Virus genome (UHGV): UHGV-0148165
Reading direction: 5' to 3' (one strand)
Origin: a virus
DNA length: 64,000 bases
Made by a program: the position numbers and the translations under genes
The notes under the pieces: model-generated
What the model was told of the DNA's origin: nothing
The model's input: only the letters and a program-made list of their open reading frames with translations
The model's database searches: none
In this document: piece after piece, positions 27,585-31,491 of the stretch
Numbering within the stretch: the stretch's first letter is position 1
Layout: each line of letters begins with the position of its first letter

Positions 27585-28382
27585 TTATACTCTTGGACCA
27601 TATATTACTCCAACATTTTGCCAAGTTGGAGCAGATCCTATGACAGCATAACCTGCTGCTCCTCCTGCACCAACCTTTAGAACTTTACCACCATCAGACC
27701 AGGCATTTTGTCCATTTCCTCCGGCATCGCCGCCCTGGCCAGAGTGAGCATTTCCGTATTGGTAACCACCTCCTGGGGCGACGTATGAAGCTGCGCCACC
27801 TGAGTAACCACCGCCACCACCTGGGCCAAATGGTCTTCCGCCACCACCACCAATATCTTGCCAGCGTGCCCCTGAGTGAACACGGTAAGCAATGCCGCCA
27901 CCACCGCCTCCGCCACCACAGATTACTCCACCATTGTTAATTCTTAATCGTCCACCAATGTCGTTTTGAATACAATGCCCGCCTTGTTGTCCATTACCAT
28001 CTCCACCGAAATGAGTCCATCCACCTTGTCCACCTCTACCCCACATATGAGCGCCAATAATATTTAACTGAACATATTCATTTGGTGTATCTCCGTACAT
28101 GAAGAATAAAGGAACATCTTTAGAATATGATACTAAATCACCTGTAATATTAAACACTATAGGTGCATTACCTGCCTCAAAACATCTATCTCGGAACCAT
28201 TGACCATTGAAGTTATGGTCTGCTCCAAGCGTGTGAATAATTTCTCGTGAGCGACCTGCAAATTGACTCATCCAGCAAGGAACACCCAATCTTAATTGAC
28301 CAGCCGCTTGACTCATCCATCGTTGTCCTGTTTCATTTACGGATGAACTACCAATCCAGCCAGGAACTCCAACTACTGCCAT
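27585..28382 (-). CDS. 38: T2-type long-tail-fibre tip adhesin gp38
   Basis: 265 aa with multiple poly-Gly motifs (GGGGGGGG, GGGGG) separating variable segments; downstream of gene 37. Confidence 0.8.
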
Positions 28383-28397
28383 AATTTATCTCCAAAG

Positions 28398-28410
28398 GGG
28401 GCGTTGCCCC
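28398..28410 (-). promoter_or_regulatory. RNA hairpin between genes 37 and 38
   Basis: GGGGC-AAC-GCCCC on the - strand immediately before gene 38 SD; no proper U-tract. Confidence 0.35.
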
Positions 28411-28416
28411 TTGTTG

Positions 28417-31400
28417 TTAGAATTTAAAATATTTACTAATTTTGCGAGCAATTTTAGTGAAGAAAGGCGTTTTTAATTCTTTAATTTCTTCACTCATTTC
28501 CTGAATGGCCTTAATTAAAAGAGCATTCACAGCGGAGTTAGAAATTGTCAGAACTTCGTCTGGTTTATCAAGATTGCCAATTTTCGAAATATTAATCGCT
28601 TCTGGTAATATTTCTTGTAAATCCTGTGCGATAATGCCGATCTCATGACCGATAATTTCACGGTCCTTAAGAGATTTAACTTTATCGTAAGTTTTCACTT
28701 TCAGTTTACCAATCAAACTTAACGCATTTCCGGTATAATCTTCTATATTGTCTTTAAGGCGACGGTCTGATCGAATATAAACATCGTTAAAGTTTCCGTT
28801 GCCACTGGCATCAAAGCTCCCATTTGCATGGAATTGATAATCAGCAGCCTGAACATGAAGAATCGCTGTCGCAGTATTATTACTATCACCGGGACAATGA
28901 ACGTCCAGAGCAGCGATGAAGTTACGCCCCCAATCAACCGCTTTCCAAATAGCATGAGCACTATTAACGCTTTGTTGACAGTCAAGCAACAAACCAGCAG
29001 GGCGATCTCTCCAATTCACATAAGCACCACCAGAAACTTCACCGCGAATAAGCCCTTGATCTCCGGCATAAGGAACACGCTCTCCCACTTTAATCATTGC
29101 ACCCTGGAAGTGATGACTAAATGAACCCCCATGATTATTTCGTATATGTAAAATACTATCATCGGTCGCCCAAATAACAGCCTTTTCTGTATCGCTGCTA
29201 TCTCTAAACCAGATATGGCGAGCACCAGTAGAGGTTTTGATAGTAATCCCGGAAGGTCCATGCGCAGTAAAATCGCCAGCAACATCAAACATCAAACTGT
29301 TATCTGTCCTGCGTTCCGTATAGAAGTGATAACCTTTGGAATCACCGACTTCCATCACTGCCGGGCGACCAACTTCTGAATTTCCCCAATTATTAATAGA
29401 GAATCGTTCAGAGCTATTATTCATCTGATTTAGGTATAATGTACCATCAGTGAATGTTTCGCCAAAGAAACGAGTTTTAATTGCACCTGTCGCTAAAGTA
29501 CGTTCAGTGGAAAAATGGGCGCCTTGACTATCTTCTAACTGGATGATGTTATCACGAGCGTTATTGCTATCACCCCAATGGTTAAATTTAAAATAATCTC
29601 GTGATCCTAAACGTCCGGCGTCAAAAGTCATCGTGCCTTTCATGTTAATATCACCACCAAAAAATGCGGTGAGAGAATCACGTTTTAATTTTAAAACGTT
29701 AGCACCACTAGCACCACCTAAAGTAACATCACCAGTTCTTAATTCATAACGGAAAGGTCTATTTGTATTAAAGTTTCCATCTTGATCATCTTCGTCGGTG
29801 GAAAGAATATAAAGACTCTCTCCATCATTACGTAAAAATGTACCAAATTTTCCGCCATACATACGGAATGCATTCAACGAGCGGAATTTAACTTCTGTTT
29901 TAAATGTGGTAGTGTTATTAACTTTAACAGTAGAGTTAAAGTTAACTGCGCCATTAAAATCTTGTTTAGCAGTCCAAGTATGTGATCCGTCTTCAAGAAC
30001 AACGCGTCGAACTGTACATGTTCTACTCCCTGGATTACCGAATACACGAACGACAAAATAACGATAGTTTGTCTGGGATACAGTTCCACGCCAAACCTGA
30101 ACAGTACGTCCTGTGCTGGTGTGCTCGCTAGGACCAACAGAAAACATAATTAAGTTTCCGTCAATCGTACCCCAATCCATATTAGCTGGCATGTTCTTTA
30201 TTTTGTTCAAAGGAACGCTAAACATACTACCAGGAACAAAATCAAATGCTTGCCAGTCTAACTCTGCTAAGTTAGATTTAATACCACCCATACCCAAAGT
30301 AATTGGAAGAGAGTAAGATGTATATACTTCGTTCCATGTACCCCAAACACCGCCGGTGTATGCGCGCTCAAAAATACGATCGCGGGTAGTTGCACCTGTT
30401 CCGGCAGTAGTAAATTTTTGGAAAATAGCACCACCAGAAGCACGCTGTTTAACTTCCAGCAAACCAACAATAACGGCTGGTAAACCTTCGCCTGTAGGAC
30501 AATTAATAACGGCATCAGTGCCTAAAATATTATATAACCCAGGAGTTTTAAAATCATTCAGATCTCCGTCATAGAAAGTCGCTGGTGTGACATTACCGAC
30601 TTGTTGCCACGGTCCCCATTTAGGCGCAGAAGCATCCCACGCAGCAGTAAGACAGCGAGTATAAACAACACCAAATCTGGTCGTATATCTCTGTGTGCGA
30701 GAATAGTTTCCACCTTCAAATATTTCTAAAAATCCTTGTGCGGCTGATCCTTTTTCTGGATAATGGCGATCAAATGATGCGATTGCGCTTGAACTGTTTC
30801 GCCATAAGCCACAATGTTCTAATTCTCCCAAGCTATCAAGGTCAATCGTTTGTGAAAGTGGACGAGTTGACGCTTGAACATTACGCCACACACCCCATGG
30901 ACCATCGACGCCATTCCATTTAGCAGATAAGGAACGAATATAGACGTTACCAGATCTTACAGTATAACGCTGAGTGCCAGCAAATTGGCCGGCCACAAAC
31001 ACTTCTAGTACACCTACGGCATTTTCTTCTGGGAATTTATTTGCTGGTTGCGCATTTGTTGAAGTAGATTTCGACCAAACACCAAGATATTCTTCAACAG
31101 GCCCATACGTATCTAAATTAGCATCAGTAGGTAATTCGCCATTATTTTTTATAAATGTTGTGCTATTGACATTTATGTCAGATGGAGTTAGCGTGATATC
31201 TTTTGACCCATCAAAAGATATACCATTAATTTTCCTAGGTGTTTGCAATTTAGTAGCTGTGCTAGAATTTCCAATTAAAGTTCCAGTTATATTTTCTGTA
31301 ACCTCTAAAGACCCATTTATAGTTCCTCCATATTTTAAACCTAATTCTATAACACTACCTGAGTCATCTTTTGTGAAAATTGTTTTATCTTTTAAGTTTA

Positions 31401-31491
31401 TAGCCAATTCACCTTCGGCTAATACTGAAGCAGCAGGACGTTGACCTGCAGTTTTGCTTCTTTTAAATTGTATTTGTTTTAAAGTAGCCAT
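28417..31491 (-). CDS. 37: long tail fibre distal subunit gp37
   Basis: 1024 aa; C-terminal about 117 aa begins SDRRLKDNI, resembling an intramolecular chaperone domain. Confidence 0.9.

Follow-up and report, generated by a model that had tools for sequence, protein, structure and literature searches.

Genes 37 and 38 of a Tequatrovirus encode a long tail fiber tip of the T2/T6/S16 adhesin type with a predicted self-cleaving gp37 chaperone

RESULTS

Organization of the gene 37-38 locus

We analyzed the long tail fiber genes in a 64,000-nucleotide stretch of the virus genome UHGV-0148165 (here called the window). The features of the locus are collected in Table 1. An earlier preliminary description of this DNA had placed the open reading frames of genes 37 and 38 exactly. 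A gap of 34 bases separates the gene 37 stop codon from the start of gene 38, and the holin gene t comes after gene 38. A GC-rich hairpin lies in this gap; T2, T6, RB32, AV119, JK08, BCPEco_001, and T4 also have a stem-loop there, although the sequences of its stem and loop differ.

Table 1. Features of the gene 37-38 region, with window coordinates.
Feature	Position	Strand	Basis or location
Gene 38, tail-fiber tip adhesin	27585..28382	(-)	ORF, 265 aa plus stop
gp38 residues 1-45, N-terminal domain predicted to attach to the gp37 tip, with W9/W22/W37	28248..28382	(-)	Gp38_N, residues 1-42
gp38 residues 113-244, alternating glycine-rich motifs and hypervariable loops (predicted polyglycine-II sandwich)	27651..28046	(-)	Alignment of gp38 sequences
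gp38 glycine-rich motifs (GRM), approximate: GRM1 114-121, GRM2 134-163, GRM3 178-192, GRM4 217-224, GRM5 239-244			
gp38 hypervariable segments (HVS), approximate: HVS1 122-133, HVS2 164-177, HVS3 193-216, HVS4 225-238			
Gene 38 ribosome-binding site GGAG	28390-28393		
GC-rich hairpin GGGGCAACGCCCC	28397..28410	(-)	Past the gene 37 stop, ahead of the gene 38 ribosome-binding site
Gene 37, long tail fiber distal subunit precursor	28417..31491	(-)	ORF, 1024 aa plus stop
gp37 residues 908-1024, intramolecular chaperone domain (Peptidase_S74), starting SDRRLKDNI	28420..28770	(-)	PF13884, fold, alignment
Predicted autocleavage junction R907-S908 (DVYIR-SDRRLK)	28768..28773	(-)	Alignment with the experimentally defined S16 site DLNVS-SDRRIKK (PMC7917993)
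gp37 residues 521-581, related to the gp34 C-terminal trimerization region	29749..29931	(-)	Pfam PF21446, E 1.5e-14
TATAAATA, T4 late-promoter consensus	32174..32181	(-)	Exact match between genes 35 and 36, upstream of gene 36

The exact late-promoter match upstream of gene 36, TATAAATA, is the probable start of a 36-37-38 transcript. This octamer occurs 10 times in the window against 9.7 expected, no more often than by chance, so the promoter assignment draws on position. The copies ahead of genes 34 and 36 were the two used, as positional hints only.

Rfam at gathering thresholds gave no match anywhere in the window. At permissive settings the introns scored 42.5 and 36.6 bits, under the family cut-off of 50; the td and nrdB introns are better supported by the gene layout, in which endonuclease ORFs separate the parts of each split reading frame. 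The preliminary description had singled out the combination of T4-like introns with a T2-like host-range module. Both are present, but the pairing is not notable: BCPEco_001, SHFML-11, SHFML-26, AV119, and PYPS2T carry both, and many published phages have these introns together with a gp38 adhesin.

Over its full length, gp37 belongs to PHROG 1699, "long tail fiber protein distal subunit" (E 5e-232). In most 50-residue blocks of residues 1 to 650, identity to T6, JK08, and RB32 is 88% or more; residues 651 to 1024 are 92 to 100% identical to BCPEco_001. By this block-wise comparison, gp37 is mosaic: its proximal two-thirds resemble T6 and JK08, and its distal third resembles BCPEco_001. The exact gp37 sequence shares a 90%-identity cluster with SHFML-26 gp37. 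The segment related to gp34 also matched the T4 gp34 structures 4uxe and 5nxf (PDB; E ~1e-12).

gp38 belongs to the adhesin families

The gp38 protein matched Pfam PF05268 over residues 47 to 265 (E 1.1e-66; 225 bits against a cut-off of 25) and PF21721 (Gp38_N) over residues 1 to 42 (E 3.2e-19; 69 bits against 25). It falls in PHROG 2056, "tail fiber protein; host specificity" (E 1e-110), and matched the gp38 structures of PP01 (PDB 9v85; E 1.2e-72) and S16 (6f45_D; E 3.3e-52). No similarity was found to the 183-aa T4 gp38, the best BLASTP match having an E value of 0.78 over 20 residues; alignment with this chaperone type was the outcome that the preliminary description had named as contradicting its adhesin assignment. 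From these family and structure matches, gp38 is classed as a tail-fiber adhesin of the T2/T6/S16 type.

The earlier account of a 265-aa protein with several polyglycine stretches is accurate: glycine makes up 69 of the 265 residues (26%), including 57 of the 156 residues from 110 to 265, and forms four runs (G8 at 156 to 163, G5 at 178 to 182, G5 at 188 to 192, and G3 at 204 to 206). The G8 run aligns with 151-GGGGGGGG-158 of S16 gp38. In the gp38 alignment the glycine blocks and a C-terminal APxWQNVGxIYGxRV motif show no variation, in contrast to the intervening segments; the limits of the GRM and HVS were taken from these invariant and variable columns and are approximate.

In the N-terminal domain, W9, W22, and W37 are invariant across the gp38 proteins of T2, T6, RB32, and AV119 and align with the tryptophans of S16 gp38. 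The gp38 tryptophans have been described as prongs that fit pockets in gp37 (PMC6851490). This domain is identical to those of T6 and JK08 (45/45 residues).

The loop region of gp38 points to OmpA as the probable receptor

The loop region of gp38 is identical at 126 of 128 positions to those of AV119 and JK08, the two differences being F125 and R173. Outside residues 1-48, gp38 is 251/253 identical to AV119 gp38. Identity in the loop region is 66/128 with T6, which has a Tsx-type adhesin, and 53/128 with T2. AV119 does not infect a host from which ompA has been deleted (PMC12032242), and the reported targets of RB32 gp38 are OmpA and LPS (PMC3157838). Since the gp38 loops differ from those of the OmpA-dependent AV119 at only two residues, OmpA is the likely receptor of this phage, as judged by loop identity. 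The AV119 gp38 N-terminal domain and gp37 tip differ from those described here, so the AV119 host data transfer for the loop region only. The OmpA prediction is useful for host-range prediction or fiber engineering of this phage.

The two substitutions bear on this assignment. F125 lies in HVS1 and R173 in HVS2, and both are absent from JK08, AV119, BCPEco_001, and RB32; the closest adhesins have S at position 125 and N, H, or K at position 173. These differences could shift or broaden the predicted OmpA specificity. With the architecture as described, retargeting through residues 125 and 173 might direct the fiber to a receptor other than OmpA (Tsx, OmpC, OmpF, or FadL) or to OmpA plus a second receptor. 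The location of both residues within hypervariable segments, the variability of position 173 among close relatives (N, H, K, or R), and the change in Ox2 host range caused by point mutations in gp38 loops, as cited in PMC12892980, are consistent with such retargeting. Weighed against them are the near-identity of the loops to those of the OmpA-dependent AV119 adhesin, the report that gp38 phylogeny reliably predicts the receptor (PMC12032242), and the far lower loop identity to T6 and T2, and we regard a receptor other than, or additional to, OmpA as unlikely. A related suggestion, which we make tentatively, is that F125 and R173 could be host-range adaptations that alter the range of usable OmpA loop variants or the choice of a second receptor; if so, they would be natural equivalents of the host-range mutants of Ox2.

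The gp37 C terminus carries a predicted self-cleaving chaperone

The final 117 of the 1024 residues of gp37 form its extreme C terminus, and the segment of roughly 117 aa starting SDRRLKDNI that the preliminary description had marked at 28420-28770 (plus-strand numbering) is indeed 117 residues long and begins at S908. A search against the Peptidase_S74 profile, which that description had proposed as a check, matched PF13884 at residues 908 to 965 (54.1 bits against a cut-off of 22; E 1.9e-14), beyond the curated gathering score. PF13884 was present in 39 of the 40 homologs found. Among 32 aligned homologs (27 to 62% identity), S908, D909, L912, K913, and N915 are invariant. S908 and K913, within SDRRLK, form the Ser-x4-Lys dyad, with the Lys five residues past the junction Ser. 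The gp37 tail aligns with S16 gp37 (6f45_A) and with the ICA domain of MyRF (7dc3), such that S908 sits on the S16 cleavage Ser and K913 on the MyRF Lys.

An AlphaFold2 model of the chaperone fragment had a pLDDT of 82.9 and a helix at fragment residues 128 to 164, in agreement with the chaperone fold, in which a long C-terminal helix comes after a beta-rich core. With Foldseek, only 7dc3, 3gw6, and 3gud, all intramolecular chaperones, were recovered at a probability of at least 0.96. The TM-scores were moderate (0.36 to 0.54 on the query, at 11 to 23% sequence identity), partly because the model is a monomer that includes 50 pre-cleavage residues. The endosialidase chaperone was not found by a PDB sequence search with the gp37 tail and surfaced only in the fold comparison.

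The motif DVY[IV]R-SD.R[LV]K is found in the gp37 of T2, T6, RB32, AV119, JK08, and BCPEco_001, is common to all gp38-adhesin phages compared, and has no counterpart in T4 gp37. The five residues ahead of the junction differ between this phage (DVYIR) and S16 (DLNVS). The S16 cleavage site was defined experimentally, and the chaperone there is reported to be released autoproteolytically once the trimer has folded (PMC7917993). By analogy with these homologs, the C-terminal chaperone of gp37 is probably removed by self-cleavage in this phage as well.

A degenerate or purely structural S74-like tail might instead stay in the mature fiber, with gp38 binding elsewhere or transiently. The case for cleavage in this phage is one of homology, which leaves some room for such an arrangement. 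We consider it very improbable given the invariant Ser-x4-Lys dyad and other core residues, the S74 profile score far over the cut-off, the formation of the S16 gp38 docking surface only once the chaperone is removed (PMC7917993), and the reports that T2 and T6 gp37 are cleaved and then capped by gp38 (PMC3157838).

Base composition of genes 37 and 38

The GC content is 0.47 in gene 38 and 0.40 in gene 37, compared with 0.354 in the whole window. A difference from the early regions in GC and codon usage had been suggested earlier; it holds for base composition but not for synonymous codon usage, since GC3 (0.25 to 0.27) is within the range of the early genes (0.25 to 0.31). The excess is found at codon positions 1 and 2 (GC1 and GC2), and it arises because the proteins are rich in Gly, Ala, Ser, and Thr rather than from codon choice or foreign origin. 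The elevated GC content and the clear mosaicism of the locus between phages could be read as signs of a recent import of the module from a higher-GC donor. That reading has very little to recommend it: the GC1/GC2 excess tracks a glycine content of 10 to 26%, the chaperone segment of the same gene 37 has a GC content of only 0.33, and the exchanges seen are among Tequatroviruses that share a base composition. As GC3 is not raised, we rejected foreign origin as the explanation.

DISCUSSION

Proposed assembly of the fiber tip

We interpret this module, mechanism included, as the distal tip of a Tequatrovirus long tail fiber of the T2/T6/S16 (adhesin) type, with a probability of roughly 0.9; none of our observations contradicts it. 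Family membership, the conserved catalytic residues, the predicted fold, the gene order, and the near-identity of the loops to the adhesin of an OmpA-dependent phage are observed here. In the proposed sequence of events, gp37 would be produced as a 1024-aa precursor whose last 117 residues, the Peptidase_S74 chaperone, would drive trimerization and folding of the beta-helical shaft. The chaperone would then cut itself off between R907 and S908 by means of the S908/K913 dyad, and its removal would allow the glycine-rich gp38 adhesin to cap the fiber. A single gp38 molecule would cover the exposed end of the gp37 trimer (…DVYIR), its N-terminal helical domain placing W9, W22, and W37 in three equivalent gp37 pockets. 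The C-terminal part of gp38 would fold into a polyglycine-II sandwich presenting the hypervariable loops, which would bind an outer-membrane protein, most probably OmpA. We infer the cleavage, the 3:1 stoichiometry, and the receptor from homologs.

The idea that gp38 is a T4-style assembly chaperone outside the virion and that gp37 binds the receptor itself, to which the position of the gene between genes 37 and t, as in T4, would lend itself, can be set aside almost entirely in view of the strong adhesin family and structure matches, the absent similarity to T4 gp38, and the lack of a T4-type His-rich needle tip in gp37 by block-wise comparison with T4 gp37 (0 to 4% identity in each 50-residue block past residue 750).

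The gp37/gp38 architecture is already well known from T2, T6, S16, and most Tequatroviruses. The adhesin-type reading permits a confident annotation of gp37 as a precursor with a self-cleaving chaperone and of gp38 as an adhesin, and it matters little otherwise.

Comparison with known systems

The closest relatives of the module are in RB32/RB33, JK08, BCPEco_001, SHFML-11, and SHFML-26, whose DNA is 89 to 96% identical; no single deposited phage reaches at least 99% identity over the whole module, the best being 95.9%, and the exact proteins were found only in Logan/ENA assemblies. JK08 gp38 is identical to the gp38 described here at 263 of 265 residues, and RB32 gp38 is 95% identical overall. 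T2 likewise has a gp37 precursor with the DVY[IV]R-SD.R[LV]K junction and a gp38 adhesin with the GRM/HVS organization, but its gp37 (1341 aa) is unrelated along most of its length and its gp38 is only 49% identical overall. The label "T2-type" in the preliminary description is thus apt for the architecture but not for the sequence, which is far closer to RB32.

T4 shares the gene order 34-35-36-37-38-t, and the first 50 residues of its gp37 are 88% identical. However, the C-terminal end of T4 gp37 is itself a receptor-binding tip and lacks the S74 domain and the SD.RLK junction, and T4 gp38 is an unrelated chaperone. The chaperones of endosialidase K1F, the GA-1 neck appendage, and MyRF (3GW6, 3GUD, and 7DC3) resemble the gp37 tail in predicted fold and in the Ser-x4-Lys junction; they differ in sequence (11 to 23% identity) and in their passengers, which are a tailspike, an appendage, and a eukaryotic transcription factor, respectively.

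The S16 gp37-gp38 complex (PDB 6F45; Dunne et al. 2018) is similar in having a gp37 C-terminal chaperone starting SDRR[IL]K and a gp38 with three N-terminal Trp residues, a beta-helix, and a polyglycine-II sandwich containing a G8 helix. S16 gp38 differs in its length (249 aa) and loops and is a weaker match than PP01 gp38 (E 3e-52 versus 1e-72), and the S16 receptor is Salmonella OmpC.

AV119 gp38, a type 1 OmpA adhesin (PMC12032242), is identical past residue 48 except for F125S and R173N. At the DNA level, AV119 gene 38 is 95 to 100% identical from nucleotide 181 on. In contrast, the AV119 gp38 N-terminal domain is identical at only 23 of 45 residues, and AV119 gp37 (1104 aa) is only 6 to 32% identical in each 50-residue block past the first 50 residues, indicating that the same loop domain is mounted on a different fiber tip. 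The sequence comparison puts the apparent exchange point near the start of gene 38, within its first 180 or so nucleotides. The gp38 N terminus and the gp37 end reportedly pair in a lock-and-key manner (Trojet et al. 2011), and the AV119 loop domain on a different tip fits such pairing. The comparison agrees with the known principle that gp38 loop domains are exchanged among phages separately from the N-terminal domain, which here differs together with the gp37 tip.

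A T2-type gp38 adhesin downstream of gene 37

Genes 38 and 37, encoding the tail-fibre tip adhesin (gp38) and the long tail fibre distal subunit precursor (gp37), occupy exactly the frames given in the preliminary description; genes 36, 35, and 34 lie upstream of gene 37 and holin gene t downstream of gene 38. As described there, gp38 has 265 residues with polyglycine stretches (26% glycine; G8 at residues 156-163, G5 at 178-182 and 188-192, G3 at 204-206). Pfam families PF05268 (adhesin; residues 47-265, E value of 1.1e-66) and PF21721 (N-terminal domain; residues 1-42, E value of 3.2e-19) matched far over cut-off, and so did two solved adhesins match, gp38 of phage PP01 (9v85; E value of 1.2e-72) and gp38 of phage S16 (6f45_D; E value of 3.3e-52). 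S16 gp38 151-GGGGGGGG-158 aligns with the G8 run. The 183-aa chaperone type of gp38 found in T4 did not align (best E value of 0.78).

Features of the tail fibre module and the td and nrdB insertions
Feature	Position	Strand	Remark
Site AATAAATA	27572-27579	-	7/8 match to T4 late-promoter octamer; 31-base gap, gene 38 to holin gene t
Gene 38	27585-28382	-	265 aa
80-aa ORF	27677-27919	-	GTG start
gp38 codon 173	27864-27866	-	Arg
gp38 codon 125	28008-28010	-	Phe
Hairpin GGGGCAACGCCCC	28397-28410	-	GC rich; between gene 37 stop codon and gene 38 Shine-Dalgarno/ribosome-binding site
Gene 37	28417-31491	-	1024 aa
gp37 tandem duplication	30598-31119	-	residues 125-205 and 217-298
Octamer TATAAATA	32174-32181	-	exact; ahead of gene 36
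Gene 35	32213-33328	-	gp35 fibre hinge protein
Octamer TATAAATA	37241-37248	-	exact; ahead of gene 34
td halves	42695-43258, 44269-44583	+	thymidylate synthase gene split by insertion
I-TevI-like GIY-YIG ORF	43387-44124	+	245 aa; in td insertion
nrdB halves	47457-48134, 49192-49725	+	
HNH endonuclease ORF	48278-49087	+	269 aa, full length; in nrdB insertion

When gp38 was aligned with its T2, T6, RB32, and AV119 counterparts, as the preliminary description proposed for the T2/T6 adhesins, the N-terminal tryptophans (W9, W22, and W37), the glycine blocks, and the C-terminal APxWQNVGxIYGxRV were invariant, and the stretches between the blocks were variable. This is the layout of glycine-rich motifs and hypervariable segments described by Trojet et al. 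2011 (PMC3157838), and it matches the polyglycine-II sandwich reported by Dunne et al. 2018, per the same authors in PMC6851490. The 80-aa ORF overlapping gene 38 in a different frame is most likely a by-product of GGN-rich coding sequence, not a gene.

Gp37 ends in a predicted intramolecular chaperone

The 117-residue segment starting SDRRLKDNI, likened in the preliminary description to a chaperone domain, begins at residue 908 (coded by 28420-28770), and Pfam PF13884 (Peptidase_S74) matched residues 908-965 at 54.1 bits versus a cut-off of 22. A PDB sequence search with the last 167 residues returned S16 gp37 (6f45_A) and the MyRF ICA domain (7dc3). The stretch around S908 aligns on the S16 cleavage site, DLNVS-SDRRIKK, where autocleavage between the two serines removes the last 113 residues and exposes the gp38 docking surface (PMC7917993). 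Among 32 homologues (27-62% identity), S908, D909, L912, K913, and N915, which include the Ser-x4-Lys dyad, were invariant. An AlphaFold2 model built on this alignment (mean pLDDT of 82.9) gave confident fold matches only to intramolecular chaperones, those of MyRF (7dc3), endosialidase (3gw6), and GA-1 (3gud). Profile, cleavage-site, catalytic-residue, and fold evidence concur on a C-terminal chaperone with all testable defining features of the family, and autocleavage is predicted.

Composition and expression context

Of the distinct codon and GC usage suggested for this operon, the GC part held (0.47 in gene 38 and 0.40 in gene 37 versus 0.354 in the window), but the codon part did not, since GC3 (0.25-0.27) equals that of early genes. 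The excess sits at GC1 and GC2 and follows the glycine-rich, small-residue composition, so raised GC is an effect of protein composition, and different codon choice or foreign origin was rejected as its cause. In the part of gene 37 that encodes the chaperone, GC is 0.33.

The exact octamers ahead of genes 36 and 34 are consistent with T4-like late transcription, although across the window the octamer is no commoner than expected by chance. The AATAAATA site is conserved in T2, T6, RB32, AV119, and JK08, whereas T4 has an exact TATAAATA overlapping its gene 38 stop codon. The hairpin between genes 37 and 38 keeps its position in T2, T6, RB32, AV119, JK08, BCPEco_001, and T4, with differing stems and loops (a CTTCGG loop in T4, T2, and AV119). 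Its role may be in RNA stability or in setting the ratio of gp37 to gp38.

T4-like introns accompany the adhesin

The preliminary description's pairing of T4-like introns with a T2-like host-range module was borne out. Both td and nrdB are split around endonuclease ORFs, and each insertion has a sub-threshold Rfam Intron_gpI match at its 3′ end (td, 43993-44223, 42.5 bits, cut-off of 50; nrdB, 48932-49172, 36.6 bits). Many Tequatroviruses carry the td insertion at 100% identity. The nrdB HNH ORF exceeds the truncated T4 I-TevIII in length and is similar to the RB3 version. The nrdB region has matches in Pectobacterium and Klebsiella phage records too, pointing to a mobile element that has spread between genera. 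Both introns occur at 99-100% identity in BCPEco_001, SHFML-11, SHFML-26, and AV119, and PYPS2T is among the matches listed for the td intron; all five carry gp38 adhesins, and the pairing is ordinary.

Mosaicism and receptor specificity

No deposited phage matched the whole module at 99% DNA identity, the best being BCPEco_001 and BCPSen_003 (95.9%). Gp37 residues 1-650 resemble those of T6, JK08, and RB32, whereas over residues 651-1024 its identity to BCPEco_001 is 92-100%. Within gp37, an ~80-residue domain is tandemly duplicated (41% identity, pairwise E value of 4e-20), with possibly a weaker third copy after it, and residues 112-325 give a match to PHROG 4618 ("tail collar fiber protein"). 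Gp35 has an ILEI (interleukin-like EMT inducer) Pfam match at residues 58-112 (E value of 9.6e-08; 32.9 bits versus a cut-off of 27).

Gp38 is identical to that of JK08 at 263/265 residues and 95% identical to that of RB32. Past residue 48, AV119 gp38 differs only as F125S and R173N, yet identity over its first 45 residues is just 23/45 and its gp37 is unrelated past the first 50. The loop domain has thus been exchanged independently of the attachment domain, which differs jointly with the gp37 tip.

AV119 is OmpA dependent, in the "type 1" broad-range group (PMC12032242), and RB32 reportedly uses OmpA and LPS (PMC3157838), so OmpA would most likely be the receptor here. F125 and R173, the sole differences from JK08 gp38 as from the AV119 loop domain (Ser and Asn in both), fall within hypervariable segments and do not occur in the close relatives compared; position 173 varies among N, H, K, and R in close relatives. 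The two substitutions may shift specificity and bear on host range.

The module among Tequatroviruses

The observation of a T2-type module was confirmed and its main interpretation supported. Public assemblies already contain identical gp37 and gp38 proteins, and many phages have annotated proteins that are nearly identical. In genes 37 and 38 extracted from T2, T6, RB32, AV119, JK08, and BCPEco_001, DVY[IV]RSD.R[LV]K occurs ~110-125 residues from the gp37 end in 6/6; no counterpart of this junction was found in gp37 of T4, whose type is less common (PMC6851490). Since the gp37 C terminus of T2 and T6 is proteolytically cleaved before gp38 caps the fibre (PMC3157838), the feature is the normal state of Tequatroviruses with gp38 adhesins, and the biology of the module is textbook, and already known, for this phage group.
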